A stretch of DNA of 64,000 bases from Candidatus Limnocylindria bacterium (GTDB lineage Bacteria > Desulfobacterota > Binatia > DP-6), in assembly GCA_035559675.1 (NCBI GenBank), contig DATMAZ010000220.1, positions 11,024 through 75,023 of the forward strand. Reading direction: 5' to 3'. The notes beneath the pieces are model-generated. The model saw only the letters and a program-made list of their open reading frames with translations, made no database searches and was not told the DNA's origin. Below are positions 5,166 to 39,949 of the stretch, one piece after another. A program made the position numbers and the translations under genes. The stretch's first letter is position 1. Each line of letters begins with the position of its first letter.

Positions 5166-6071
5166 ATGACGGGCAAGCGGTGGCGATGGAAACGGACGGC
5201 GGCAGGGGCGATCGCGCTATGCGTCATCACGGGATGCGGCGGAGAGCCGGAGAAGGCTCCGCCGCCGCCGACGCTGGCGTCTTTACCCGCGGCACCGGCC
5301 GCGGCTTCGCCAACCGGGCCTCAGGCAGCCCCGCCGACCACCGCTCCGCCCGCACCCGTCGCGCAGGCGCCCCGCGCCATTCCCACGGTCGAGGTGAAAG
5401 AACACGCCGACCTGGTGTCGTTCTCGAACTGGCGGTGGAAGGACGCCGAGCAAAGGCAGCTCGCGGTCGAGGTGAAGCTCCCCAAGGGACCGATTGCCTT
5501 CATCCGATACGACTTCAACACGGCGGACGGCTACGTTGCCTCCGGGTTCCTTCCCGGCAGTGCCTTCGTCGCCGGCGAGGCCACGCAGACGGCCTTCTTC
5601 CCGCCCGCCACGGGCGTCGCCGCGGGCGGTAAGACGATCGTTCCCGACGTGAGCCAGGCGACGCGGCTCACCATCTACGTCGATCCGCTGCCCACGGACG
5701 CCGTGCCCGCGGGGCAGCCGGCCTGGGTGGGTCCGCACGCCACGGCGTGCGAACAGGGCTCGGTCCCGGACTGCAAGACGCTCGCCGCCGCCTACCGGAC
5801 CGGCCGCAGCGATGAAGGCGCTGTCAAAGCCGACGAAACGCTCGCCACCCACTACCGCAATCGCTTCGTCGCGCTCGGTCAGACCACTTGCGCTCTCGGC
5901 GCCACCGAGACGTGTTTTCTTCTCGGCCTCGCCTTGGTCGGAGGCGACGATGCGCCCAAGGATCCCGATCGCGGCGTGGCGTTTGTCCAGAAGGCGTGCG
6001 GAATGGGCCTGCAGGCGGCCTGCGACTGGCAGGTGGCCAATCTGGACGCTATCCAGGCGCTTGCCGAGTGA
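5166..6071 (+). CDS. Lipoprotein with C-terminal Sel1-like repeats carrying paired cysteines (Hcp-like)
   Basis: Signal peptide plus lipobox (ALCVITGC) and a Pro/Ala-rich linker. The C-terminus has three Cys-X7-9-Cys pairs in Sel1-like helical repeats (ACEQGSVPDC, TCALGATETC, ACGMGLQAAC). Confidence 0.6.
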   Translation: MTGKRWRWKRTAAGAIALCVITGCGGEPEKAPPPPTLASLPAAPAAASPTGPQAAPPTTAPPAPVAQAPRAIPTVEVKEHADLVSFSNWRWKDAEQRQLAVEVKLPKGPIAFIRYDFNTADGYVASGFLPGSAFVAGEATQTAFFPPATGVAAGGKTIVPDVSQATRLTIYVDPLPTDAVPAGQPAWVGPHATACEQGSVPDCKTLAAAYRTGRSDEGAVKADETLATHYRNRFVALGQTTCALGATETCFLLGLALVGGDDAPKDPDRGVAFVQKACGMGLQAACDWQVANLDAIQALAE

Positions 6072-12711: not shown

Positions 12712-13233
12712 CTAGTCTCCGTCCAGCTGGTATGCGAGCTGTTCGACGCCGGCCAGCGCGTCCGGCTGGAGACGCGCCAACGCTTCCGCATCGTCCCGTA
12801 GCACCGCGTCCAGAAAGTTCACCGCGAGATAGTTCTCGACGTGCCGGCCGTGTCGCCGCGGGAGGAACTCCGGCTCGCAGGCCGCCGGCCTTCCGCGCGG
12901 TACCTCGGGCACCTCGCACAGATCGGCGAAGCTCGAATGCGCGGCGCGAACGAAATTCCCGTAGCCGACCAGCGCCGGACCCGGGGCCAGGGCGTCGAAC
13001 GATCTCGCGGGGTGTTCCACCTGCCGGCCGCCGGGGTTCAGCGGGGAGTGCAACTGCTGCACGAATGGTTGGCCCGACGCGCAGCTCGGCGTCGGCTGCT
13101 GCACCCCGTCGTAATTGTAGTCCAGCTGCTCGCAGAACTGCCGCTCGCTGCGCACGGTGTAGAGCGCGATCAGCAAACACGCCTTGAGCAGCCGCTCGGG
13201 CGGGACCGAGGGCCGGCCGCCATCGGCGTACAT
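12712..13233 (-). mobile_element. Degenerate IS5/IS1182-type transposase N-terminal remnant (pseudogene; no DDE domain)
   Basis: GGRPSVPPERLLKACLLIALYTVRSERQFCEQLDYN matches the DUF772/InsH N-terminal motif and then diverges. A later ...AHSSFADLCEV...NFLDAVLRDDAE resembles the HSxFSKNR / FFDAVL region. No catalytic domain follows. Confidence 0.5.
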
Positions 13234-14009: not shown

Positions 14010-14693
14010 TCACCAGACGCCGCGGAACATCCGGTACCGGGTGACGCTCATGTAGGCCCGATACTCGTCGCCGCGGGCCCGCAGCAGCTGTCGCTCTTCG
14101 ATCGGAATGAAGCCGACGAAGGTGAGGCCGATGGCCGCCGCCCAGACGAGCTGCGCGGCGTTGGGATGGATCAGCAACGAGGACAGGCCCATGCACACGG
14201 CGCCCCGATACATTGGGTGGCGGACGCTCGCGTACGACCCGGTGGTGAGCAGCGGCGTCACGGCGGCGGCCGTGTGCGTCTGCTCCCCGCCCGGGATGCC
14301 GAGCAGGCCGCGCAGCGACTCGAAGGTCGCGCCTTCGAGGAAGGCGAGAAACGACAGGAGGAAGGCGCACGTGCCGGCGTAGACCACCCACCAGCTCGGC
14401 GTGTACGCCGGGCCCGGGAGCGGACGGTGCAGCGCGTAGAGCACCACCCAGGTGACCACCGCCACCGTGATGTAGGCGCGCCGTTCCGCCGGGGAGCCTT
14501 CCGGCCGACCGGTGACCGCTTTCTTGAAGGTCGGTGTCATCATCACGTAGTGAATCGTGACGTAGGCGAGGTACAGGAGCGCGTTCACCAGGTAGTTCCC
14601 GGCCGGAGCGGACGCGTCGTGGCGAAAGCCGAGCAGCAGCGACGCCGGGACTGTCATGAGGCCGAGGTACGCGAACCAACCGTATGCCACCAT
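14010..14693 (-). CDS. Isoprenylcysteine carboxyl methyltransferase (ICMT)/PEMT-family membrane methyltransferase
   Basis: 227 aa polytopic protein. The C-terminal ICMT motif (SYASVRHPMYRGAVCMGLSSLL...GFIPIEERQLLRARGDEYRAY) is taken from the C-terminal part of ORF 14010..15569. Confidence 0.75.
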   Translation of the reverse strand: MVAYGWFAYLGLMTVPASLLLGFRHDASAPAGNYLVNALLYLAYVTIHYVMMTPTFKKAVTGRPEGSPAERRAYITVAVVTWVVLYALHRPLPGPAYTPSWWVVYAGTCAFLLSFLAFLEGATFESLRGLLGIPGGEQTHTAAAVTPLLTTGSYASVRHPMYRGAVCMGLSSLLIHPNAAQLVWAAAIGLTFVGFIPIEERQLLRARGDEYRAYMSVTRYRMFRGVW

Positions 14694-14749: not shown

Positions 14750-15082
14750 TCAGGCGGCGCGCGCGCATCGCGCGGCGGCAGCCTCGCAGGCCTCGGTACA
14801 CCGCGCGTTCTGACAGAGGCTCGCGCACGCGAGCCCGAAGCCCTCGCAATGGTCTCGCGGCGCCTGGCGACAGGCGTCGTGCCCCGCCTCGCAGGCGCCA
14901 CGGCACTGCTCGGGGACGTAATCCCCGCCGCCGCCGCACCGTTCGATGCACGCCGTCCGCCCGTCGCCGCAGAACCGCTCGACCTGCGCCCGTTCGGGGC
15001 CGCCGGACCCGCAGGCGCAGGCCAGCAGCAGCGCCCAACCCAGCGTGCGGAGCGCACGCGTCCTGTCGGCTCGCCGGTTCAT
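14750..15082 (-). CDS. Cysteine-rich secreted mini-protein or lipoprotein (14 Cys in ~85 mature residues)
   Basis: Signal peptide plus lipobox (LLLACACG). Many CxxxC/CxC spacings, ending ...RCARAA. The ATG at 15082 overlaps the upstream gene's stop. Confidence 0.55.
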   Translation of the reverse strand: MNRRADRTRALRTLGWALLLACACGSGGPERAQVERFCGDGRTACIERCGGGGDYVPEQCRGACEAGHDACRQAPRDHCEGFGLACASLCQNARCTEACEAAAARCARAA

Positions 15083-16065
15083 CCCACCGCCGTCTCGGGG
15101 CGGTTCGCATCCGGATGCCGGACGTACGCCTGGTGGAGCAGCCGGATGAATGCTGGATCGCGCTCGGGGTCGTCGCCGGACGGTGGCGCCGCGATGCCGC
15201 GCGCAGCGAGATCCACGCGAAAGCGGCGCAGCACCTCGGCGAGGTCGATGTCGTCGGTGTGCTCCGCCCACCGGCGGCGCTCGGCGTCCGACTCGAACAC
15301 CAACGCCTTCCACGACACGCTGACGCGCAAGCGCTCCCGGGGCACCGCTGCCAGCTCGCGCCCGCCATCGACGATCGTCCAGGCGTTGCCGCCGCCTGTG
15401 AGCTCGCTCGCCATCGTGAGCGCGGGCATGCCATCGGCGAGCGCGCCGGTGGGCCGGACCCGATGCCACATGACGTCGTTGTCGCCGACGATGGCCGTGT
15501 TGTCGATTCGGCCCTCGTGAACGCGGGACGGGCGGTCGGGCCCGTCCGGCCAGTATTCGAATCCGCCATCCGCGCCGGCGTAGAACCATACCACGGCGGT
15601 GGCCACCTTCACGCGTACGTCCTCGAACAACCCGGAGAGGCCCATGATGGTGAGCAGCGTGATGGGATGGCGCGTGCGATCGAACCCCCGGAATACGGGG
15701 ACGTCGGTGTGGCCGGCGCCCTGCGGGAACGGGAGCTGATACGTGAGGTTCACGTACACGGTCGTCGGCACCACGATCTCGGCGTCGAAGAGCCGCCGGG
15801 CGGCCGCCACGAAACGCGGTGAGTGCAGGAGCGGTGCCACCCCCTCGCGCACCACGCCGTCGGCGGCCCAGTTGCCGCGAAACACCGGCGCTACGACCAT
15901 CCCGGCGGTCGCGTCGCGCCCCGACAGCGCGGCGTACTCGGCGTCGTTGGCGAAGTAGCGCTGGACCGGCCAGTACGGTGCGTGCGCGTCGATCAGGGAG
16001 TGCACCGCCGCCGGATCGTCCACCGCCGGGTCGAGAAGCACAGGCGCACGGGGCGACTGGGCCAT
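15079..16065 (-). CDS. Conserved hypothetical protein with an HxD...H motif (possible 2OG/Fe(II)-oxygenase or cupin-like), paralog A
   Basis: MAQSPRAPVLLDP... contains AGHTDVPVFRG and a later VMWHRV. It is clearly paralogous to 33541..34548 (ERLRVSVSWKALVFESDAERRRWAEHTDDIDLAEVLRRF versus EDLRFSVSWKAYCFADEAERRLWAEHRDDLTVDAVVERL). Confidence 0.6.
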   Translation of the reverse strand: MAQSPRAPVLLDPAVDDPAAVHSLIDAHAPYWPVQRYFANDAEYAALSGRDATAGMVVAPVFRGNWAADGVVREGVAPLLHSPRFVAAARRLFDAEIVVPTTVYVNLTYQLPFPQGAGHTDVPVFRGFDRTRHPITLLTIMGLSGLFEDVRVKVATAVVWFYAGADGGFEYWPDGPDRPSRVHEGRIDNTAIVGDNDVMWHRVRPTGALADGMPALTMASELTGGGNAWTIVDGGRELAAVPRERLRVSVSWKALVFESDAERRRWAEHTDDIDLAEVLRRFRVDLAARGIAAPPSGDDPERDPAFIRLLHQAYVRHPDANRPETAVG

Positions 16066-16183
16066 ATGCGCACCGTGGCATGTCGCCCTCCTGATGTCGA
16101 GACGGAACGGCGGCGCCGCGATGGGAATGCTGCGCCTGCATGCTGCCGACGAGCCGAGAGCGAGCGACACAGAGGCCGTGACC

Positions 16184-16873
16184 TCAATGCAGCCAGCGCA
16201 GCACGAGGAACCCAGCAACCAGCAGCACGACGAAGAGCGTCGTCATGAGGTTGAAGTTGCGCTCCAGCACCTCGCGCATGCGCGGCCCGAAGCGCGCGAT
16301 CAGGCTTGCTTCGATAAAGAAGCGCGCGCCGCGAGACAGGACGGAGGCGAAGAAAAAGGCCGGCACGTTCATGCCGAAGAGCCCGGAGGCGATGGTGAAG
16401 ACCTTGTAAGGGATCGGCGTAAAACCGGCGATCATGACCGCAACGATGCCCCATTCGTTGTAGAAGCCTTGCACCCGCTCGAACGCCTCGTGGCTGAAGC
16501 CCGGTACGTAGGTAAAGAACCAATCGTCGACGGCATGCCAGAACCCCCAGCCGATCAGATACCCGAGAAGGCCGCCGAGAGCGCTCGCCGCGGTGCAGAC
16601 GAACGCGTACCAGAAGGCGCGGGACGGCCTGGACACGCCGAGTGCGATCAGCAGCACGTCGGGCGGAATTGGAAAGAAGCTCGACTCCGCGAAGGACAGG
16701 CCGGCGAGTCCCGCCGTGCCATGGGGGCTGTCGGCCCAGCTCGTCACCCAGTCGTAGAGTCGCCGATGCATGCCCGGGCGCGGCGGCGGTTGCCAAGCCT
16801 GCGCGGTGGCCACGCCCTGGGCGGGCTTGCCAGGCCGGTCGTCGGTGGAATCCATCGGGGGTTTGTAACCCAT
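16184..16873 (-). CDS. DedA/YqaA (SNARE-associated) family membrane protein
   Basis: Carries the DedA core (FFPIPPDVLLIALG...GFTPIPYKVFTIASGLFGMN). Alternative starts exist at 16855 and 16930. Confidence 0.75.
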   Translation of the reverse strand: MGYKPPMDSTDDRPGKPAQGVATAQAWQPPPRPGMHRRLYDWVTSWADSPHGTAGLAGLSFAESSFFPIPPDVLLIALGVSRPSRAFWYAFVCTAASALGGLLGYLIGWGFWHAVDDWFFTYVPGFSHEAFERVQGFYNEWGIVAVMIAGFTPIPYKVFTIASGLFGMNVPAFFFASVLSRGARFFIEASLIARFGPRMREVLERNFNLMTTLFVVLLVAGFLVLRWLH

Positions 16874-27774: not shown

Positions 27775-28542
27775 ATGCGACTGAGTGAGGTTCGGGCGAT
27801 GGTAACCGGCGGGGCGTCGGGCCTCGGAGGTGCCACGACGCGCCGGCTGGTCGAGGCGGGCGGGCGCGTGACGATCTGCGACCTGCCGACCTCGAAGGGC
27901 GCCGAGCTGGCGCGCGAGCTCGGCGAGCGGGCGCAGTTCGTGCCGACGGACGTCACGGACGAAGCACAGGTGCAGGCGGCGGTGGATGCCACCGTGCAGC
28001 GCTTCGGCGGGGTCAACGTGCTGGTGAACTGCGCCGGCATGGGCATGGCGGGTCGCACCATCTCGAGGCAGGGCCCGTTTCCGCTCGACCCCTTCACCAA
28101 GACCATCCAGGTGAACCTGATCGGCACCTTCAACTGCATCCGCCTGGCGGCGTTCCGCATGTCGCAGGCCGAGCCCAACCAGGAGGGCGAACGGGGCGTG
28201 ATCGTCAACACCGCCTCCGTGGCCGCCTTCGACGGGCAGATCGGCCAGGCGGCGTACTCCGCGTCGAAGGGCGGGGTGGTGGGCATGACGCTGCCGATCG
28301 CGCGCGATCTGTCGTCGGTCGGCATCCGCGTGTGCACGATCGCGCCGGGCACGTTCGATACGCCGATGCTGGGGATGGCGCCCGAGGAGATGCGACAAGC
28401 GCTGGCGGCGCAGATCCCGTTTCCGAAGCGGCTCGGGCGTCCGAGCGAGTTCGCCGCGCTCGCCGCGCACATCATCGAGAATCCGATGCTGAACGGCGAG
28501 ACCATCCGGCTCGACGGCGCCATCCGCATGGCACCCAAGTAG
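27775..28542 (+). CDS. SDR-family 3-hydroxyacyl-CoA dehydrogenase type II (HSD17B10-like)
   Basis: TGGASGLG Rossmann motif, [28 protein letters not shown] catalytic motif, and end-to-end similarity to type-2 HADH. Confidence 0.85.
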
Positions 28543-28550
28543 GAGGCGCG

Positions 28551-29453
28551 ATGAGCACGGGCGAGCGCGTCGGCGTCGTCGGGCTCGGCAACATCGGCCG
28601 AGCGATCGCCGCCAACCTGGTGGCCGACGGCTACCACGTCTCGGTGTACGACCTCGACCAGAACCGCGTGCAGAGCCTGGTCGGCGCGGGCGCCCGGGCG
28701 GCCGCGAACGCCGCGCAGGTGGGGGAGCGGAGCGCCGTCACCTTCCTCTCGCTGCCGACGCCGAGCGCCATGGAGGCGGTGGCCGACGAGTGGCTCGCCG
28801 GCGCGGCCCGCGGCGCGATCCTGGTCGACCTCACCACCAACGCGCCGGTGGTCGTCGAGCGCGTGGGCGCGCGGCTGGCCGCCGCGGGACGGCATCTGCT
28901 CGAGTGCCCGCTCACCGGCGGCGCCCCGGGCGCCCAGGCGCGCATGCTGGTGTTCATGGTGGGCGGCGAGCCCGTCGTCTACGAGCGCGTGCGCCCGCTG
29001 CTCGCCAAGCTCGGCCGGGCGAGCTTCCACATGGGCGGGCTCGGGCTCGGCAACGTGGCGAAGCTGGTGAACAGCCTGATCGCCTTCCAGGCCACCTGGG
29101 GCACGCTCGAGGTGCTGGCGGTGGCCGCCAAGGTGGGCATCGACCTTCGCACCATGATCGACGTCATCCGGGCGGGAGGCGCCGGCAACGTCTTCACGGA
29201 GCGCATGGTCGAGGGGCTGAACCAGCGCCAGCGTCCGACGCAGTTCGCGCTCGGGTTGGCGGCCAAGGACGCCGGACTGTTCGTCGACCTGGCGCGCCAG
29301 GCGGGCGTGCCCGTGCCGGTCTCGGCGCAGGTCGCCCAGGCGTTGGTGGCGGCGGTGGCCGCCGGCCTGGCCGAGCGCGATTTCACCGATCTCGTGGAAG
29401 TGGTCGAGCGCGCAGCCGGCGTGAAGCTCGTGCTCGCACCGCCGAGGACGTAG
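28551..29453 (+). CDS. NAD(P)-dependent 3-hydroxyisobutyrate dehydrogenase-family oxidoreductase (MmsB/GarR-like)
   Basis: GVVGLGNIGRAIAANL Rossmann fold and conserved catalytic Lys region (GGLGLGNVAKLVNSL). AGGAGG RBS at 28541. Confidence 0.8.
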   Translation: MSTGERVGVVGLGNIGRAIAANLVADGYHVSVYDLDQNRVQSLVGAGARAAANAAQVGERSAVTFLSLPTPSAMEAVADEWLAGAARGAILVDLTTNAPVVVERVGARLAAAGRHLLECPLTGGAPGAQARMLVFMVGGEPVVYERVRPLLAKLGRASFHMGGLGLGNVAKLVNSLIAFQATWGTLEVLAVAAKVGIDLRTMIDVIRAGGAGNVFTERMVEGLNQRQRPTQFALGLAAKDAGLFVDLARQAGVPVPVSAQVAQALVAAVAAGLAERDFTDLVEVVERAAGVKLVLAPPRT

Positions 29454-29462
29454 CCCGCCCGT

Positions 29463-30188
29463 GTGCGAGGCGCGATGCGGGTACGAGGAGGACACGCCGC
29501 GCTGCTGCTCGCCGCGCTCCTCGCCTGCGGCCCAACGGAGCGCTCGCCCGTGACCTCGACCGACGCCACCGCGGCGGCCCGCGAGGCGATGGTCGCCGAG
29601 CAGATCGAGCGCCGGGGCGTGCGCGATCCGGAGGTGCTGCGCGCCATGCGCGTCGTGCCGCGGCACGAGTTCGTGCCGGTCTCGGAGCGCGCGGAAGCCT
29701 ACGACGACCACCCCCTGCCGATCGGGCACGGGCAGACGATCAGCCAGCCCTACATCGTGGCGTTCATGACCGAGGCCGCAGCCGTGAGGCCGGGAGCGCG
29801 GGTGCTCGAGATCGGCACCGGCTCGGGCTACCAGGCGGCGGTGCTCGCGGAAGTGGGGGCCGAGGTCTACACGATCGAGATCGTGCCCGAGCTCGCCGCC
29901 GCCGCCCGCGCGGCGCTCACGCGCACGGGCTACGAGCGCGTGCACACGCGCACGGGCGACGGACACAAAGGCTGGCCCGAGGCGGCGCCGTTCGAGGCCA
30001 TCATCGTGACGGCGGCCGCGCCCCGGGTGCCGCCGGCGCTGCTCGAGCAGCTCGCGGTCGGTGGGCGGCTGGTCATGCCGGTGGGCAGCGTCTGGCAGGA
30101 GATCGAGATCCACCACCGCACCCAGGACGGCATCTCGGTAGAGCGCGTGCTGCCGGTGCGGTTCGTGCCGCTGGTCGGCGGCCCCTGA
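29463..30188 (+). CDS. pcm: Protein-L-isoaspartate O-methyltransferase, exported/lipoprotein form
   Basis: [34 protein letters not shown] and GGRLVMPVG motifs. It has an N-terminal signal peptide with an AALLACG lipobox. Confidence 0.85.
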
Positions 30189-30239
30189 GCGCGATCCGAT
30201 CGCTTGAACCCGCGCGCGAGCGTGCGGTAGGTCGGGCCC

Positions 30240-31397
30240 ATGACGCCCGACGGGCTGCGGGTCATGGACAGCGACATGCACGTGCTGGAGCCGCCCGACC
30301 TCTGGCAGCGCTACATCGACCCGGCGTTCGCTCACGTGGCGCCCGTCGGTCTCACCGAGATGCCGCGCGACATGCGGGTGCGGGTGAAGTCGCACGTCAT
30401 GCTGAAGCTCGGGCCGGTGCGGCCGCGCGCCGCCGGTGCCAAGGCGTGGAGCAGCGAGCAGGACCGGGTGTTCGCCGACGCCGAGCGGCGCGGCTGGGAC
30501 GCCGACTCGCAGTGCCATGCGATGGACGCGGAGGGCCTCGACCAGGCGGTCCTCTTTCCGAGCCGCGGGCTCTTCGTGCTCGGCCTCGACCTCCCGCAGG
30601 TGGTGGGACTCGACGGCCTCGAGCCCGAGTTCGCCGCCGCCATCGCGCGCGCCTACAACGACTGGCTCCACGACTTCTGCCGCCGCGATCCCGCCCGCCT
30701 CCTCGGCGCGGGCATGGTGGCCCCCCACGACGTGACCAGCGCGGTGGCCGAGACGCGCCGCTGCGCGGAGACGCTCGGCATGAAGACCGTGTTCCTGGCG
30801 CCCGGCTGCGTCGGCCGGCGGCCCTGGCACGATCCGTACTACGACCCGCTCTGGGCGGAGTGCGAGCGGCTCGGCATCGCGCTCACCTTCCACGGCGGCG
30901 GCCAGACCAACTTGAAGCCCGACTTCTCGCTGGAAGTGCTCGACAAGCTCATGATGTGGCACACCTTCAACCAGCCACTCGGCATCATGGCCGTGGCCGT
31001 GAGCCTGACGGCTGGCGGCGTCCTCGAGCGCTTTCCCCAGCTGCGCGTCGGGCTGCTGGAGGGCAACTGCGGCTGGGCGCCCTGGCTGCTGCAGCGCCTC
31101 GACGAGCACTGGGAATGGGTGGGGGCGTACGAGGCGCCGGAGCTCACCATGAAGCCGTCCGAGTATTTCCGCCGCAACTGTTACCTCTCCGTCGAGGCGG
31201 ACGAGCAGTCGGTGAAGTACTACGTCGACGCCTACGGCGACGAGAACCTGGTCTTCTCGACCGACTACCCGCACGCCGACTCGAAGTACCCGCGCTCGGT
31301 GGCGACGTTCCGCACGCTGCCCCTGTCCCCGGACTCGCAGCGAAAGATCCTCTGGGACAACTGCCGGCGCCTCTACGGCCTTCCGGTCGGCCCATGA
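30240..31397 (+). CDS. Amidohydrolase-2 family metal-dependent hydrolase (ACMSD-like)
   Basis: MDSDMHVLEP...HGG...STDYPHAD shows the PF04909 fold signature. Its stop overlaps the next start as ATGA. Confidence 0.7.
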   Translation: MTPDGLRVMDSDMHVLEPPDLWQRYIDPAFAHVAPVGLTEMPRDMRVRVKSHVMLKLGPVRPRAAGAKAWSSEQDRVFADAERRGWDADSQCHAMDAEGLDQAVLFPSRGLFVLGLDLPQVVGLDGLEPEFAAAIARAYNDWLHDFCRRDPARLLGAGMVAPHDVTSAVAETRRCAETLGMKTVFLAPGCVGRRPWHDPYYDPLWAECERLGIALTFHGGGQTNLKPDFSLEVLDKLMMWHTFNQPLGIMAVAVSLTAGGVLERFPQLRVGLLEGNCGWAPWLLQRLDEHWEWVGAYEAPELTMKPSEYFRRNCYLSVEADEQSVKYYVDAYGDENLVFSTDYPHADSKYPRSVATFRTLPLSPDSQRKILWDNCRRLYGLPVGP

Positions 31398-33544
31398 CCG
31401 GGCTCGGCGCCGCCGTCGCGCTGGCAGCCGCGCTGCTGGCCGGACCCGCGGCGGCGACGGCGGTTGCGCCCGTGGTGACGGTCACCACGCGCGGCCCGAA
31501 GATCGTCGTGCGCAGCGAGGCCGCGGAAGCCGTCGTGCGGCGCAAGCACGTGCGGCTCGTCGTGCGGGACCGCTCCACCCGCAAGCGGCTGCTTCGCGAG
31601 CGGGCGCAGGGCGGCCTCTTCTACGAACGCGCCGGGGTGGTCCACGAGCTCGGCCGCGTGACGGCAGCGGAGGTGGTGCCGGGCGGGGTGGCGCTCGTGG
31701 TCGAGACGGACGAGGGCGCGCCCGCCACGCTCACGCTGCGCTTTCAGACGGCGCGCACCCTCGTGGTGGCGCTCGATCCGCCCGATCCCGAGACCGTGGA
31801 GGCGTTCGGCGAGCGGCTGCGCTCGCCGCGCAACGAGGCGATCTACGGGCTGACCTCGCGGCTCCGCGACTCGCCGCCGCTGGTGCCGGGCGTGATCGAC
31901 ATCCCGGCCGACGACGTGATGCCGCCGGAGGTGGGCTCGCTCGACCGGCGCGGCGAGAGCATCGAGATGCGGATCATGCCGACGTTCAGCCTCTACGCGC
32001 CGTTCTTCCAGTCGTCGCGCGGCTACGGGCTCGCGGTGGAGGGCACCACCTTCGGGCGCTTCGACGTGGCACAGAGCGACCCGCGCATCGTGAGCTTCCG
32101 CTTCGAGGCCGGGACGACCCCCGCCTCGCGGCGCCTCGTGTATCGAGTGTTCGTCGGCCCCGAATACGCCACGATACTCGACGAGTACACGAACGCCACG
32201 GGCCGGCCGATCGTGCCCCCGGACTGGACCTTCCTCCATTGGCGCTGGCGCGGCGAACTCACCTTGGGCCCGACGGCGCTGCTCGATGGGCTCCCGGTGA
32301 ACGCCGACGTCGCCGACGACGTGCTGAGCTACGAGGCCTACGGCATCCCGCCGGGTGTCTACCTCTTCGATCGTCCGGTGATGCCCGGCAACTTCGGCTT
32401 CGCCCGCTTCGAGTGGGACGAGGTGCGGCTGCCGAACCCCACCCACATGCTGGACGCGCTCCGGCGGCGCGGCTACCGCTTGGCCGTCTGGAGCAGCACC
32501 TGGGCCTGCGGCGCCGGGCCGGGCGACAACGGCACCGAGGCGCAAGCGCTGGGCTTCCTCGCGCCCGACCCCACCGAGCCGCCCCCGCCTCCCAACTGCG
32601 CCGACGTCGGCGGCACGAGCTTCATCCTGGACGTCACCAACCCGGCAGCGCGAAGCTGGTTCGCCGGCAAGCTCGCCGCCTTCCTCGCCGCCTACGGCCT
32701 CCAGGGCGTGAAGCTCGATCGCGGCGAGGAGCACATTCCGTCCGAGGCGAGCGACATCTGGGCCGATGGGCGCACGGGCCGCGAGGTCCGCAACGACTAT
32801 CCGCGGCTGCAGGCCATGCTGCACCACGAGGCGCTGTCGAGCGCGTTCCCGGACGGCGACTTCTTCCTGGTGACGCGCTCGGCGTACACGGGTACCGCGC
32901 CGTGGGCCGTGTTCTGGGGCGGCGACATCCCGGCCAGCGAGAACTTCGGCGCCGGGGCGGGGACCGACCTCGGGCTGCGCAGCGCGATCATCAGCCAGCA
33001 GCGGGCGGCCTTCATGGGGCTGCCCATCTGGGGCTCGGACACCGGCGGCTACTACGAGTTCAAGGACCGGGAGGTCTTCGCGCGCTGGATCGAGTTCAGC
33101 TGCTTCTCGGGCCTGATGGAGATCGGCGGGGTGGGCGAGCACGCGCCGTGGCGCATGCCGACGACGCCGGCCCTCGACACGGAGCTGATCGACATCTACC
33201 GTCGCTACACGGTGCTCCGCCACACACTCCAGCCGTACATCGTGGCCGCGGCCACCGAGGCGGCCCGCGGCATGCCGATCGTGCGGCCGATGCCGTTCGA
33301 GGATCGGCGGGACCGCCGGCTGCGGGACCGCTGGGACCAGTACCTCTTCGGGCCCGATCTGCTGGTCGCGCCGGTGTGGCGGACGGGCGAGCGCCAGCGC
33401 GAGGTCTACCTGCCGCGCGGGCGGTGGCGGAACTACTTCGACCGCGCGCAGGCGATCGACGGGCCGGCGTTTCGCACCGTGGACGTGCCGCTCGACGCGA
33501 TCGCCGTGTACGTGCGCGACGGCGCCGAGGTGCCCGGCCCATGA
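31394..33544 (+). CDS. Glycoside hydrolase family 31 (alpha-glucosidase/alpha-xylosidase-like), secreted
   Basis: Signal peptide. GH31 catalytic region (VKLDRGEE, WGGDIPAS, IWGSDTGGYY). It is embedded in the artefactual 1584 aa ORF 28790..33544. Confidence 0.8.
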   Translation: MTGLGAAVALAAALLAGPAAATAVAPVVTVTTRGPKIVVRSEAAEAVVRRKHVRLVVRDRSTRKRLLRERAQGGLFYERAGVVHELGRVTAAEVVPGGVALVVETDEGAPATLTLRFQTARTLVVALDPPDPETVEAFGERLRSPRNEAIYGLTSRLRDSPPLVPGVIDIPADDVMPPEVGSLDRRGESIEMRIMPTFSLYAPFFQSSRGYGLAVEGTTFGRFDVAQSDPRIVSFRFEAGTTPASRRLVYRVFVGPEYATILDEYTNATGRPIVPPDWTFLHWRWRGELTLGPTALLDGLPVNADVADDVLSYEAYGIPPGVYLFDRPVMPGNFGFARFEWDEVRLPNPTHMLDALRRRGYRLAVWSSTWACGAGPGDNGTEAQALGFLAPDPTEPPPPPNCADVGGTSFILDVTNPAARSWFAGKLAAFLAAYGLQGVKLDRGEEHIPSEASDIWADGRTGREVRNDYPRLQAMLHHEALSSAFPDGDFFLVTRSAYTGTAPWAVFWGGDIPASENFGAGAGTDLGLRSAIISQQRAAFMGLPIWGSDTGGYYEFKDREVFARWIEFSCFSGLMEIGGVGEHAPWRMPTTPALDTELIDIYRRYTVLRHTLQPYIVAAATEAARGMPIVRPMPFEDRRDRRLRDRWDQYLFGPDLLVAPVWRTGERQREVYLPRGRWRNYFDRAQAIDGPAFRTVDVPLDAIAVYVRDGAEVPGP

Positions 33545-34548
33545 GCTGGGGCGGCGTGACAACCTTTACGCCGCTGTTCCCCGCGGACACGGCGGCGGCC
33601 ATGGTGGCGCTCTGCGAGCGCTTCGGCAGTTACGGGATGTATTCGGAGGAGCCGACGTTCGCCGGCCTGGGCGAGGGCCTGCCCGCCCGCTGGGACGCCG
33701 TGCGCAACTTCCTCAAGACCGGCGATCGAGTGGGGCGCCGGGAGCCGCTCGAGGTGCTGGCGGCGCGCACGAACTACTTCCGGGAGACGTACGCCTACGG
33801 GGCCGCGCCCGCCATCGACGGCATCGAGCCGTTCCTCTTCCACGAGGGCTTCGTCGAGGCGGCCCGCCGGCTCCACGGCCGGCCCGTGGTCGAGCCGGCC
33901 ATCGTGTTCGCGAACCTGCTCGTCCCCGGCCAGGAGCTCGCCGTCCACACCGACGTCCCCGAGTTCCGCGGCGTGAGTCGCAAGAGCCATCCCCAGTGGC
34001 TGATCGTGGTGATGCGGCACAGCGGCCTCTTCGAGGCCTGGCGCATGCCGATCGCCACCGCGGTCGCCTGGTTCCACGACTGCACGGGCGGGGAGTTCGT
34101 CTACTACCCGGACGGCCCCGAGGCGCCCCCGGTGGCGCATCCCGTTCGCTACAACACGGCGCTGCTGCTCGATACCGACAGCGTCTTTCACGGCGTGGCC
34201 CCCCTCGCCGAGCCGGGGACCGAGATCGCACCGCTCCGCCCCGGGATGCGGCTCACCGCCGCCGGCGGGGGCTGGTGGGAGGTCCGGGACGGCGAGCGGC
34301 GCGTCGCGCGCTACCGCTGGGAGGATCTGCGCTTCTCCGTCTCGTGGAAGGCCTACTGCTTCGCCGACGAGGCGGAGCGTCGCCTGTGGGCCGAGCACCG
34401 GGACGATCTCACGGTCGACGCCGTGGTCGAGCGCCTCCTCGAGGACCTCCGCGCCCGCGGCGTGGTCGGCGCCGACGTGCCGCGCGGCAACGAGCTGGTG
34501 GACCTGTTGATCGACACGTACGTGCGCTACCCGAAGCCCACCGCCTGA
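33541..34548 (+). CDS. Conserved hypothetical protein with an HxD...H motif, paralog B
   Basis: ATGA-coupled to the GH31 gene. Contains AVHTDVPEFRG...VFHGVAP and the FVYYPDGPE and SVSWKAYCFADEAERRLWAEH blocks shared with 15079..16065. Confidence 0.65.
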   Translation: MSWGGVTTFTPLFPADTAAAMVALCERFGSYGMYSEEPTFAGLGEGLPARWDAVRNFLKTGDRVGRREPLEVLAARTNYFRETYAYGAAPAIDGIEPFLFHEGFVEAARRLHGRPVVEPAIVFANLLVPGQELAVHTDVPEFRGVSRKSHPQWLIVVMRHSGLFEAWRMPIATAVAWFHDCTGGEFVYYPDGPEAPPVAHPVRYNTALLLDTDSVFHGVAPLAEPGTEIAPLRPGMRLTAAGGGWWEVRDGERRVARYRWEDLRFSVSWKAYCFADEAERRLWAEHRDDLTVDAVVERLLEDLRARGVVGADVPRGNELVDLLIDTYVRYPKPTA

Positions 34549-36701: not shown

Positions 36702-38510
36702 GTGGCACTCGACATTCTAACTCGCCTACGGGGGCGTGCGGGTGACGCGCCGGACGGGCCGCCGACGCTGCCGCTCGCGCCGGCGGCGCCCTTCGCCTTT
36801 TTGCCGATCGCCGGGGTGGACGGCGCGGTCGAGCTCGTCGTGCGCGGGCGGGTGTACGCGCCGCTCGTCCCGGAGCTGCGCCGGGCGTTCGAGCGGCGTC
36901 GCGATGCGGGCGCACGCCACCTGGTGGTCGACGCCACCGCCTTGGAGCAGGTCGATTTCGCCGGCATCGGTTTGCTGGCCGACATGCTGGGCGACGTGTG
37001 GGCCGCGGGCGGCGGCATGGTCATCTACGGGCTCGACCCGCGGATCGAGCGGATGCTCGAGATCACCCAGCTGCGCAGCGTCATGCCGACCGCGGCCGAT
37101 CGCACGCAGGCGCTGGCCCGCATCGGCGACGCGCCGGCCGGCGTCGATCCGGCGACCTTCGACCGCATCCGGCGGCACATCCGGGTGGTGGCCAATGCCG
37201 GGGCCGAGCAGCCCCCCGGCGAGGAGTTGCCGCGGCAGGCGCTCGCGCGCGTGGCGTACGACTACTTCGTGCGGTGGGTGACCGAGCGCGGCATCCCGAA
37301 TCGCGACGACGCATGGGACCGGCTTCGCGCCGAGGCCACGGTGCTGGTGCAGCGGCTGGCGCGCGACGCCGGCTTTGCTTGCTCCCCGGAGGACTGCGCT
37401 CAGGTGGCGGCGCTGCTGGTCTCCGATCTCTGCGGCTTGGGGCCGATCCAGGCCTTCCTCGACGATCCGCTGGTGACGGAGGTCATGGTGAGCGGCGCCG
37501 GCGACGTGCTGATCGAGCGCGCCGGGGCGCTCGAACGAACGGACGTCCGGTTCCGCGACAACGAGCACCTGATGCACACCATCCGCCGCATCGCCGAGCG
37601 GGTCGGTCGCCGCATCGACTTCGCCAACCCGTCGCTCGACGCGCGGCTCGACGACGGCTCGCGCGTGCACGCGCTCGTGCCGCCGGTCGCCATCGACGGC
37701 CCCACGCTCAGCATCCGGAAGTTCGGCGTGCAGTTCCGGCAGCTCGAGGATCTCATCGTGGGCGACATGCTGAGCCCGGACATCGCCTACTATCTCGGCG
37801 CCTGCGTGAAATCGCGCTTGAACGTCGTCATCGGCGGGCCGGCGGCGTCGGGCAAGACGACGCTGCTGCAGGCGCTGGCGGCGCAGGTGCCGCTGCGGGA
37901 GCGGCTGGTGACCATCGAGGAGATCACCGAGCTCGATCTGTCCGAGGTCCACCCGAACGTCGTGCGGCTGCAGGCTCGGCAGGCGAACACCGAAGGGAAG
38001 GGCGAGGTGACGATCCGGCAGCTGGTGCGCGAGGCGCTGCGCATGCGAGCCGATCGCATCCTGGTGGGCGAGGCGCGGGGCGCCGAGATGATCGAGGTGC
38101 TGCAGGCCATGCGCTGCGGGCACGACGGCTCGATGACCACGATCCACGCGTCGTCGCCGTCCGATTTGATCGAACGCGCCACCACCATCGCGCTGTTCGC
38201 CAACCTCGGCCTGTCCGACGATGCGGTCCGGCGAATGGTGATCGACGCGCTCGACGTGATCGTCTTCCTCTACCGGTTCGCCGACGGCCATCGCCGCGTC
38301 GTGCGCGTGACCGAGCCGTACCGTACGGCGCAGGGCGACGTCGCGCTGAACGACGTGTTCACGTTCGACCACGAGGGCTACGACGCCGCGGGGCGCGTGC
38401 AGGGTGGGTTCCGGCTGATCGGCCCGTCCCGCTTCGACGATCGTTTCCGCCGCCAGGGCATCGAGGTGCCGTGGGCGGTCTTCGCGCGGGGCGTGCCGGC
38501 CGCGGACTGA
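36702..38510 (+). CDS. CpaF/TadA-type secretion ATPase with an N-terminal STAS (anti-sigma-antagonist-like) domain
   Basis: GTG start. Residues ~20-125 form a STAS fold (HLVVDATALEQVDFAGIGLLADM...MVIYGLDPRIERMLEIT). Residues 260-602 carry the CpaF core (GGPAASGKTT Walker A, DRILVGEARG Walker B, His box MRCGHDGSMTTIHA). Confidence 0.8.
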   Translation: MALDILTRLRGRAGDAPDGPPTLPLAPAAPFAFLPIAGVDGAVELVVRGRVYAPLVPELRRAFERRRDAGARHLVVDATALEQVDFAGIGLLADMLGDVWAAGGGMVIYGLDPRIERMLEITQLRSVMPTAADRTQALARIGDAPAGVDPATFDRIRRHIRVVANAGAEQPPGEELPRQALARVAYDYFVRWVTERGIPNRDDAWDRLRAEATVLVQRLARDAGFACSPEDCAQVAALLVSDLCGLGPIQAFLDDPLVTEVMVSGAGDVLIERAGALERTDVRFRDNEHLMHTIRRIAERVGRRIDFANPSLDARLDDGSRVHALVPPVAIDGPTLSIRKFGVQFRQLEDLIVGDMLSPDIAYYLGACVKSRLNVVIGGPAASGKTTLLQALAAQVPLRERLVTIEEITELDLSEVHPNVVRLQARQANTEGKGEVTIRQLVREALRMRADRILVGEARGAEMIEVLQAMRCGHDGSMTTIHASSPSDLIERATTIALFANLGLSDDAVRRMVIDALDVIVFLYRFADGHRRVVRVTEPYRTAQGDVALNDVFTFDHEGYDAAGRVQGGFRLIGPSRFDDRFRRQGIEVPWAVFARGVPAAD

Positions 38511-38545
38511 GCGTTCCTACCGGCGAGCCCCGTTCGCCGGCCCGT

Positions 38546-39895
38546 TCACCGGCCGGCGCTCGTCCCGGAGGGCGCCTCCCAGAGGTGCTCGCGCGTCTCG
38601 GCGGCGATCACGCCGCTCAGCGCGAGCAGCGCCACGAGATTCGGGACGGCCATGAGCCCGTTGGCAATGTCGGCGAACGCCCAGACGGCCCGCAGGGAGG
38701 CGACCGAGCCCACCATCACGGCGAGCACCCACAGCACCCGGTACGGGCGGATGGCGGCGACGCCGAAGAGATACTCGGCGGCCTTCTCCCCGTAGTAGGA
38801 CCAGCCAAGGATGGTGGAGAACACGAAGGTGAGCAGCCCTATGGTGAGCACGATGGGGCCGACCACGGGCAGGTCGGCGAAGGCCGCCGTGGTGAGCGCC
38901 GCGCCGCCGATCCCCTGGGTCCATTCGCCCGAGTTCACCACCACGAGCCCGGTAAGCGCGCACACCACCACGGTGTCCCAGAACGTGCCGGTGGCCGACA
39001 CCAGCGCCTGGCGCACCGGGGTCGTGGTCCGGGCGGCGGCGGCGACGATGGGCGCGCTGCCGAGCCCCGACTCGTTCGAGAAGAGGCCGCGCGCCACGCC
39101 GTAGCGGATGGCGTCGCGCATGGCGGCGCCGGCGAAGCCGCCGACCGCCGCCTGCCCGGTGAACGCGCTCGAGACGATCAGCCGCAGCGTGTCGGGGAGC
39201 GCGGCGGCGTTGGTGACCAGCAGCACGGTGCAGCCGACGACGTAGAAGAGCGCCATGAACGGCACCAGCGCCTCGCACACGCGCGCGATCGAGCGGATGC
39301 CGCCCAGGGTGACGACGGCGGTGGCGACGGTCATGAGGGCGCCCGAGATCCAGGGGCTCACCTGGAACGTCTCGTGCGCCAAGGACGCGATGGCGTTGGC
39401 CTGCACCATGTTGCCGATGCCAAAGGCGGCGACGGCGGTGAACGCGGCGAACGCGACGCCGAGCCAGCGCTGCCCGAGCCCGCGCTCGAGCACGTACATC
39501 GGCCCGCCGGCCATCGTCCCTGCCGGCGTGCGGATGCGGTATTTGATGGCGAGCACCGCCTCGCCGTACTTGGTAGCGATGCCGAACACGCCGGTGAGCC
39601 ACATCCACAGCACCGCGCCCGGGCCGCCGGAGGCGACGGCGGTCGCCACGCCGACGATGTTGCCGGTGCCGATCGTGGCGGCGAGCGCGGTGACGAGCGC
39701 GCCGAAGTGGCTCACGTCGCCTTCGCCCTCGGGATCGCGCTGCACCGAAAGGCGGATCGCGCGCCCCATGTAGCGCTGGATGAAGCGCAGGCGAACCGTG
39801 AGGAAGAGGTGCGTGCCGACCAGCAGCACGAGCAGCGGTGGGCCCCACACGAGGTCGCTCACGCGGCCGAGAAACTGCTCGAGCCCCTGCATCAT
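38546..39895 (-). CDS. Alanine/glycine:cation symporter (AGCS family)
   Basis: MMQGLEQFLGRVSDLVWGPPLL...GTGNIVGVATA...GGPGAVLWMW are AGCS signature blocks, with 11 TM helices. Confidence 0.85.
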   Translation of the reverse strand: MMQGLEQFLGRVSDLVWGPPLLVLLVGTHLFLTVRLRFIQRYMGRAIRLSVQRDPEGEGDVSHFGALVTALAATIGTGNIVGVATAVASGGPGAVLWMWLTGVFGIATKYGEAVLAIKYRIRTPAGTMAGGPMYVLERGLGQRWLGVAFAAFTAVAAFGIGNMVQANAIASLAHETFQVSPWISGALMTVATAVVTLGGIRSIARVCEALVPFMALFYVVGCTVLLVTNAAALPDTLRLIVSSAFTGQAAVGGFAGAAMRDAIRYGVARGLFSNESGLGSAPIVAAAARTTTPVRQALVSATGTFWDTVVVCALTGLVVVNSGEWTQGIGGAALTTAAFADLPVVGPIVLTIGLLTFVFSTILGWSYYGEKAAEYLFGVAAIRPYRVLWVLAVMVGSVASLRAVWAFADIANGLMAVPNLVALLALSGVIAAETREHLWEAPSGTSAGR

Positions 39896-39949
39896 CCCCA
39901 CCTCCGACGTTTCGGCTCCTACCACGGCAGACAGCCGCGTAAAACCCGC

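Follow-up and report, generated by a model that had tools for sequence, protein, structure and literature searches.

The described systems that come closest to the two proteins treated here are Fe(II)/2-oxoglutarate (2OG) oxygenases of the prolyl 4-hydroxylase (P4H) type, represented by Pseudomonas PPHD (4j25 and 4iw3) and human PHD2, together with Burkholderia pseudomallei 6n1f, which its PDB title leaves as functionally uncharacterised as our two proteins ("2OG-Fe(II) oxygenase family oxidoreductase"). We compared with these systems two paralogous genes, copy A and copy B, that lie on a stretch of 64,000 nucleotides (the window) from a Candidatus Limnocylindria bacterium placed by GTDB in the Binatia (assembly GCA_035559675.1, contig DATMAZ010000220.1, positions 11,024 to 75,023 of the forward strand; 72% guanine-plus-cytosine [GC] content for the contig). 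As judged from their predicted structures, both copies share with the P4H-like enzymes a double-stranded beta-helix core with HxD...H at equivalent strands and an Arg on the last core strand that is followed by a small hydroxyl residue and a Trp. We consider it likely that A and B are soluble cytoplasmic Fe(II)/2OG-dependent dioxygenases of one large, unnamed family that lies as a satellite beside Pfam family PF13640. The family is new and has no Pfam model of its own, but it belongs to a very well known superfamily, and its enzyme class is an ordinary one.

Fold and candidate catalytic residues

The two genes and the residues on which the assignment turns are as follows.

15079..16065, minus strand: copy A, 328 amino acids, A-type Fe(II)/2OG oxygenase-fold protein with an N-terminal PYWPVQRYF motif (locus tag VNO26_15755)
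15703..15711, minus strand: H119-T-D121 of copy A, with the putative proximal metal ligands His and Asp; unchanged in all of 39 A-type sequences
15463..15465, minus strand: H201 of copy A, which would complete the triad as its distal His; unchanged in the same 39 sequences
15307..15327, minus strand: R247-V-S-V-S-W-K253 of copy A, putative 2OG C5-carboxylate-binding strand (beta VIII)
33541..34548, plus strand: copy B, 335 amino acids, B-type Fe(II)/2OG oxygenase-fold protein (locus tag VNO26_15835)
33946..33954, plus strand: H136-T-D138 of copy B, with the corresponding putative ligands His and Asp, where predicted strand 133-136 ends
34189..34191, plus strand: H217 of copy B, putative distal His, on predicted strand 216-219
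34330..34350, plus strand: R264-F-S-V-S-W-K270 of copy B, putative 2OG-binding strand (predicted strand 264-274)

An initial annotation, made from the DNA sequence without database searches, had described two paralogous proteins of ~330 amino acids at these positions. Both open reading frames (ORFs) are present and intact, with third-position GC of 0.89 (A) and 0.95 (B), values as in real genes. Pairwise alignment gave 43% identity over 247 amino acids (BLASTP, E = 4e-54), and a tblastn search of the window returned these two matches and no third family copy. All of the conserved blocks quoted in that annotation were found in both proteins when their coordinates were checked, among them GGFEYWPDGP in A and GEFVYYPDGP in B, and RVSVSWK...AERRRWAEHTDD in A and RFSVSWK...AERRLWAEHRDD in B. 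Signal peptides were absent from both copies. For the start of copy A, the ATG at 16065 used by the initial annotation is better supported than the deposited GTG at 16041 (320 amino acids), because P5, R6, and P8 are conserved in homologs. A strong AGGAGG-N6-ATG also lies on the minus strand at 16079..16093, 14 nucleotides upstream of the A start and out of frame with A; its frame is that of a long alternative ORF (14750..16141) and of the Cys-rich ORF that follows A (see below). This upstream signal may be due to chance or may be a sign of an unusual translation start.

AlphaFold models were obtained for B (predicted local distance difference test [pLDDT] score of 89.8 and predicted template modeling [pTM] score of 0.88) and for A (pLDDT of 85.3). 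In Foldseek searches of the PDB, the best 50 matches of each copy were all Fe(II)/2OG oxygenases (probability 0.99 to 1.00, E values of ~1e-6 to 1e-4, 6 to 15% identity, target-normalised template modeling [TM] scores up to 0.65). These matches included P. putida P4H 4j25, 6n1f, PHD2, SnoN/SnoK, AlkB, PiuC, PolD, AviO1, ColD, and AsqJ; no cupin or JmjC entry was among the best 50 of either copy. As modeled, both proteins have a double-stranded beta-helix (jelly-roll) core, on which the HxD...H residues would form a facial triad. Where the initial annotation had suggested a 2OG/Fe(II), PhyH (phytanoyl-CoA dioxygenase), or cupin fold, the 2OG/Fe(II) jelly-roll stands, whereas cupin and PhyH are neither the closest folds nor the closest families. 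The structures AsqJ and FtmOx1, which we take to be of the PhyH type, appeared among the listed fold matches of copy A alone, from rank 24 down.

The H-T-D...H arrangement pointed out in the initial annotation is present at residues 119 to 121 and 201 of A and at residues 136 to 138 and 217 of B, and it is conserved across 106 diverse family representatives with 24 to 59% identity to B. Within this set, H136 and R264 (B numbering) never vary, and conservation is at least 90% for D138 and H217. Six positions (H136, D138, H217, R264, S268, and K270) are invariant in 77 aligned sequences, and the A-type set shows the same for R247, S251, W252, and K253 on a strand predicted to span residues 247 to 257 of A (39 sequences). 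The jelly-roll fold of the models and the H/D/H residues of the homologs are the two points on which the initial annotation had let its proposal depend, and neither goes against it. We take the Arg of the RxSxSWK motif as the putative ligand of the C5 carboxylate of 2OG. In a family-profile comparison with the solved prolyl 4-hydroxylase 6iuq, H217 of B aligned with the distal His of that enzyme, if weakly (E = 0.27). The Arg, which opens the last core strand, stands 47 residues after the distal His, compared with ~10 in P4H enzymes, because a three-strand element of ~37 residues (236 to 259 in B numbering) is inserted between the two. Both copies also carry an N-terminal helical/beta region of ~115 amino acids and three C-terminal helices. 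The reference enzymes, at ~200 residues, are too short to carry the N-terminal region, the insertion, and the C-terminal helices all together.

Family size and divergence of the two copies

Word-indexed searches returned more than 2,851 relatives for B and 572 for A, while an exhaustive profile search gave 1,324 clusters at 50% identity with E <= 1e-3. In a collection holding one genome for each of 185,579 bacterial and archaeal species, 490 stretches encode a relative. The best 80 of these 490 are all from metagenome-assembled genomes (MAGs) of Binatia, "delta proteobacteria"/Myxococcota, Acidimicrobiia, and other Actinomycetota. The family is found mostly in uncultured Binatia, Myxococcota, and Acidimicrobiia, between which orthologs are 60 to 72% identical.

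The one Pfam family that came near was PF13640 (2OG-FeII_Oxy_3), which scored 12.9 bits against B (E = 0.22; gathering threshold of 27 bits) and gave no match to A. It matched 16 of the 106 representatives with E <= 0.01, and a single one, P0309, passed the gathering score (29 bits). These scores place the family as an outlying relative, or distant satellite, of the P4H-like PF13640 and not as a member of it as currently modeled. PhyH (PF05721) matched neither copy at E <= 1 nor any of the 106 members at E <= 0.01, and there was no cupin or JmjC Pfam match for A or B.

Their alignment identifies A and B as true paralogs. It starts at A74/B93, which leaves the N-terminal 75 to 90 residues of the two proteins unaligned, and their DNA identity is ~67%, in patches; both features argue for an ancient divergence and not for a recent duplication. 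A-type homologs have 64 to 84% identity to A and 33 to 43% to B, and B-type homologs show the converse. Average-linkage clustering of the 106 representatives put A and B in different top-level groups of ~26 members each, and an N-terminal PYWxVQRYF motif is found in A-type proteins but not in B. By these sequence comparisons, A and B belong to separate deep branches of one family. Since ~90 N-terminal residues cannot be aligned by BLAST, the two copies presumably take different substrates. A second MAG (locus-tag prefix ACI8TX) encodes a B-type protein, P0092, and an A-like protein, P0248, which is 42% identical to A and carries the N-terminal A-type motif. The presence of several family members in one genome thus recurs and is not unique to the window.

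Gene neighborhoods

Around the two copies, the window contains the following features.

14010..14693, minus strand: PEMT/ICMT-like membrane methyltransferase, 3' of the Cys-rich ORF; all Pfam matches weak
14750..15082, minus strand: Cys-rich ORF of 110 amino acids, putative lipoprotein; its ATG overlaps the stop codon of A (ATGA)
16184..16873, minus strand: DedA/VTT-domain membrane protein, upstream of A
27799..33544, plus strand: operon upstream of B (SDR, HIBADH-like dehydrogenase, PCMT, Amidohydro_2, and GH31), lineage-specific
29475..30188, plus strand: PCMT (protein-L-isoaspartate O-methyltransferase) gene inside the B operon, missing from the relative L169
34667..36613, plus strand: arginine decarboxylase, downstream of B; adjacency kept among close relatives only

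Using tblastn, we looked for the window proteins in 86 loci, most of them B-type, and in 82 loci of the A type, 42 of which exceed 4 kb, and we also clustered neighboring genes de novo. The local context of copy A is as the initial annotation described it, a cluster with a Cys-rich peptide, an ICMT-like gene, and DedA. The Cys-rich ORF has 14 Cys, a signal peptide, and a lipobox (LLLACACGSG) and no Pfam match. Three of the four Pfam matches of the PEMT/ICMT-like gene fall under the gathering score, and DUF1295 scores 21.1 against a cut-off of 20.4. None of the three neighbors (DedA, the ICMT-like gene, and the Cys-rich ORF) has a homolog in the 82 A-type loci, which include relatives at 80 to 83% identity, and no Cys-rich ORF was found downstream of any of 64 A-type homologs. 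A relative 81% identical to A (L170) instead has a gene for a Rieske oxygenase on the upstream side and one for a DUF4215/LamG protein on the downstream side; the DUF4215/LamG protein of the closest A relative has no detectable relationship to the Cys-rich ORF. On this comparison, the three genes are not conserved partners of A. A DUF772 transposase fragment (12712..13233, minus strand) lies ~0.8 kb from the ICMT-like gene and 1.8 kb from A, hinting at a local rearrangement.

Copy B is the last gene of a tight operon with ATGA overlaps at the Amidohydro_2/GH31 and GH31/B junctions: the start of B overlaps the stop of GH31, and the start of GH31 overlaps the Amidohydro_2 gene. The N-terminus of GH31 is signal-peptide-like, and the arrangement is as the initial annotation described it. 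The operon is kept in one close relative, L169, in which B is 83% and the neighbors are 82 to 92% identical and from which PCMT is missing. In L173 (B 79% identical), the operon is gone and the downstream arginine decarboxylase alone is kept, and L172 (B 74% identical) has no neighbors in common with the window. Among 80 species-level B-type loci, none has a GH31 homolog and three have the Amidohydro_2 gene, in no case adjacent to the oxygenase. The arginine decarboxylase is 92 to 94% identical in L169 and L173 and occurs in 1 of the 80 wider loci, where it is not adjacent. In the window, genes for a STAS-T2SSE ATPase and a Na/alanine symporter (36801..39925) lie between the arginine decarboxylase and a GluQ-RS-like gene; they are absent from the syntenic L173.

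Across the family, no conserved gene partner was found by tblastn, by de novo clustering, or in a Pfam census of neighbors, which revealed clade-level synteny only. A total of 140 nonredundant, immediately adjacent genes fell into 136 Pfam families, the commonest being SDR (5), luciferase-like monooxygenase (3), MFS (3), and ACAD (3), with coenzyme A (CoA)-transferase and thiolase also among the commoner ones. A and B each behave as a free-standing gene with neighbors that differ from lineage to lineage. Each clade has its own synteny, and no partner crosses clades. In ~25 Acidimicrobiia and other Actinomycetota (L027, L032-L044, L057-L066, L081, and others, around position 6001 of each locus), the order is PALP, a Cys/Met pyridoxal phosphate (PLP) enzyme, a DUF1330-like ORF of 100 amino acids, the oxygenase, and UDG, with sdhB-sdhA-sdhC-GH2 following on the opposite strand; L035, L044, and L049 differ in that UDG is upstream of the ORF-oxygenase pair and not downstream. 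We considered as functional links the adjacency of sdhCAB, succinate being the product of the proposed reaction, and that of UDG, and set both aside because the whole block is syntenic within one clade. A P450 gene lies directly downstream of the oxygenase in L001, and several clades have genes for PhyH, nitronate monooxygenase, CoA ligase, and TetR next to it. As compared here, the neighboring genes say nothing reliable on the function of A and B.

Cultured Novosphingobium and Sphingobium have distant homologs (~30% identity) in catabolic islands on megaplasmids (L174-L176), where these homologs adjoin genes for TonB receptors, TetR regulators, FAD oxidoreductases, CoA ligase, ACAD, enoyl-CoA hydratase, and BVMO. 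One of them is encoded on pNL2 of N. aromaticivorans (L174):

348419..349471 of pNL2: distant homolog, annotated as "hypothetical protein"

Up to 7 matching places were found on one sphingomonad megaplasmid record, a copy number that is typical of substrate-diversifying catabolic families. Distant members also occur on pRHL1 of Rhodococcus jostii RHA1 and on an Embleya replicon. Another, P0340 (762 amino acids), is a fusion of TfuA, a middle region, and the oxygenase domain, and its start overlaps the end of an upstream YcaO gene, an arrangement (L167, 173..3723) that suggests a module for peptide thioamidation and oxidation. A second representative of 762 amino acids, P0363, has no TfuA match. 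Literature searches on 6IUQ, on TfuA/YcaO with 2-oxoglutarate, and on the N. aromaticivorans locus tag yielded nothing useful on the oxygenase family.

Proposed chemistry, rival readings, and known systems

If A and B follow the chemistry of their superfamily, Fe(II) would be held by the HxD...H residues (H119/D121/H201 in A and H136/D138/H217 in B) and chelated by 2OG, whose C5 carboxylate would be bound by the invariant RxSxSWK Arg (R247 in A and R264 in B). Driven by O2, the decarboxylation of 2OG would yield succinate, CO2, and an Fe(IV)=O species that would oxidise, and most likely hydroxylate, a C-H bond of the primary substrate. There is about an even chance that this substrate is a small organic compound that arises in peripheral or catabolic metabolism, for example, a lipid-like, alicyclic, or acyl-CoA metabolite. 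We lean, if weakly, toward a small molecule because genes of small-molecule redox and CoA metabolism recur loosely near homologs, because the distant sphingomonad members sit in catabolic islands, and because some plasmid records carry up to seven matching places.

Several observations weigh against a dioxygenase of this kind acting on a small molecule. Neither A nor B reached the threshold of any Pfam or NCBIfam model. Two family profiles searched against PDB sequences found no significant match; a prolyl 4-hydroxylase came closest, at E = 0.27. Every relative of A and B that was found bears the database name "hypothetical protein." When the family profile was compared by hhalign with PHD2 and AlkB, the probability was <1% and short canonical motifs alone were aligned. 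That the triad and R264 meet at one site is deduced from conservation and strand positions in the models. As for the substrate, protein prolyl hydroxylases are the closest relatives both by fold and by Pfam, the TfuA-fused member beside YcaO stands in a peptide-modifying context, and the neighbor frequencies, at 2 to 4%, may reflect no more than the background of genomes that are rich in such genes.

It is possible, though doubtful, that A and B are instead P4H/PHD-type hydroxylases of proteins or peptides, acting on a conserved cellular protein, as Pseudomonas PPHD does on EF-Tu, or on a ribosomally made peptide. The best fold matches of B are the P. putida prolyl 4-hydroxylase, alone and with EF-Tu, and PHD2; PF13640, itself P4H-like, is the only Pfam family touched, and the family profile weakly matches a solved prolyl 4-hydroxylase. 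A peptide or protein substrate would also suit the distant member that carries TfuA and comes right behind YcaO (TfuA and YcaO form a pair for peptide thioamidation), the free-standing genes with no conserved metabolic partner, and the high identity of orthologs across Binatia, Myxococcota, and Acidimicrobiia. However, the fold scores of SnoN/K, PolD, AviO1, ColD, AsqJ, and AlkB are about equal to those of the prolyl hydroxylases, and many paralogs per sphingomonad replicon lie inside catabolic islands. No translation-related or protein-substrate gene recurs in the neighborhoods examined, the TfuA fusion is confined to one protein cluster (P0340, but not P0363), and the Cys-rich ORF coupled to A is not conserved. 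Unlikely, in our estimate, is the further idea that proteins of both types serve uncultured soil phyla (Binatia, Acidimicrobiia, and Myxococcota) as housekeeping hydroxylases of proteins, each placing a hitherto undescribed hydroxyl mark on a conserved cellular protein, with the three-strand insertion and the N-terminal domain acting as a substrate-recognition module. If true, it would amount to a new branch of oxygen-dependent protein modification in bacteria, and it would explain both the free-standing genes and their high conservation across phyla. The operon contexts had led the initial annotation to assign A to a peptide and B to a carbohydrate or small molecule, in that A would modify the Cys-rich peptide of the ICMT/DedA cluster and B would act on a sugar or small molecule handled by GH31 and the amidohydrolase. 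Judging by the ATGA overlaps, translation of the Cys-rich ORF may be coupled to that of A, and translation of B to that of GH31, and the B operon is conserved in L169 with genes 82 to 92% identical. That assignment nevertheless finds no support in the wider set of loci, and we hold it to be quite improbable: GH31 is in 0 of 80 B-type loci and Amidohydro_2 in 3, not adjacent; the operon is already gone at 79% and 74% identity of B; and DedA, the ICMT-like gene, and the Cys-rich ORF are in 0 of 82 A-type loci. The oxygenases also lack the signal peptides that GH31 and the Cys-rich lipoprotein have, both of which seem to be exported, and the transposase fragment near A suggests local rearrangement.

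The prominence of AlkB/ALKBH structures in the fold matches, above all those of A, could point to AlkB-like enzymes that demethylate nucleic acids oxidatively or repair them. The R...K spacing of RxSxSWK presumably recalls the RxNxTxR of AlkB, hhalign sets the family motif N-L-x-P-G-x-x-x-A-x-H-T-D on AlkB INRYAPGAKLSLHQD, and a UDG-family gene adjoins the B-type gene in ~18 Acidimicrobiia species despite changes in gene order. Yet the hhalign comparison with E. coli AlkB is not significant (probability 0.45%, E = 0.13), and the AlkB Pfam model PF13532 matched neither A nor B nor any of the 106 family members. The UDG adjacency is probably plain synteny, as it falls within a single syntenic clade in which sdhCAB and PLP enzymes are likewise kept, and no repair genes recur elsewhere in the neighbor census, so that a role on nucleic acids seems very improbable. 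A non-catalytic protein, or one that works without 2OG (a cupin/jelly-roll binder or an enzyme with another co-substrate) and carries HxD...H by coincidence, could account for the lack of a significant match of A and B to any curated oxygenase model and for the unusual ~37-residue insertion between the distal His and the Arg strand. We give this reading almost no credence, as 106 sequences with as little as 24% identity still conserve the triad and the Arg, the 50 best structural matches of each copy are all Fe(II)/2OG enzymes, and the PF13640 threshold is passed within the family.

Read as Fe(II)/2OG dioxygenases, A and B allow several thousand "hypothetical proteins" outside all Pfam and NCBIfam models to be given a fold and a probable chemistry; these proteins are common in poorly studied soil lineages. 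The two copies also offer a case in which functional guesses drawn from operons fail on comparison with other genomes. The gain beyond annotation is modest, since 2OG oxygenases are a very well known class, but cultured hosts of distant members, such as N. aromaticivorans, with its pNL2 homolog WP_011906954.1, and R. jostii RHA1, bring the family within experimental reach.

Compared with known systems, A and B stand nearest to the P4H-like enzymes, which are the best fold matches of B; yet the structure-based sequence identity is 9 to 15%, and A and B are ~100 residues longer, with the N-terminal ~115 amino acids, the three C-terminal helices, and the three-strand insertion of ~37 residues as additions. 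In hhalign, GGILRIFP of PHD2 aligns with the GGxF/L..xP strand of the family, at a probability of <1%. The B. pseudomallei protein 6n1f ranks first among the Foldseek matches of A and second among those of B (target-normalised TM score of 0.5 to 0.6); it has 14 to 15% identity to them and ~205 amino acids, compared with 328 to 335, and is without the N- and C-terminal extensions. AlkB/ALKBH proteins share the fold and the triad, and their beta I-II motif N-x-Y/L-x-P-G...H-x-D aligns locally, but their nucleotide-recognition lid was not identified in A or B, and the sequence relationship is not significant. Small-molecule 2OG oxygenases (SnoN/SnoK, AviO1, PolD, ColD, AsqJ, FtmOx1, and MysH) give comparable fold scores at ~10 to 13% identity; A and B do not lie in a recognisable biosynthetic cluster. 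Distant members of their family, like these enzymes, are found among tailoring or catabolic redox enzymes. With PhyH, A and B would share the chemistry of the superfamily, and PhyH genes adjoin B-type genes in one clade.

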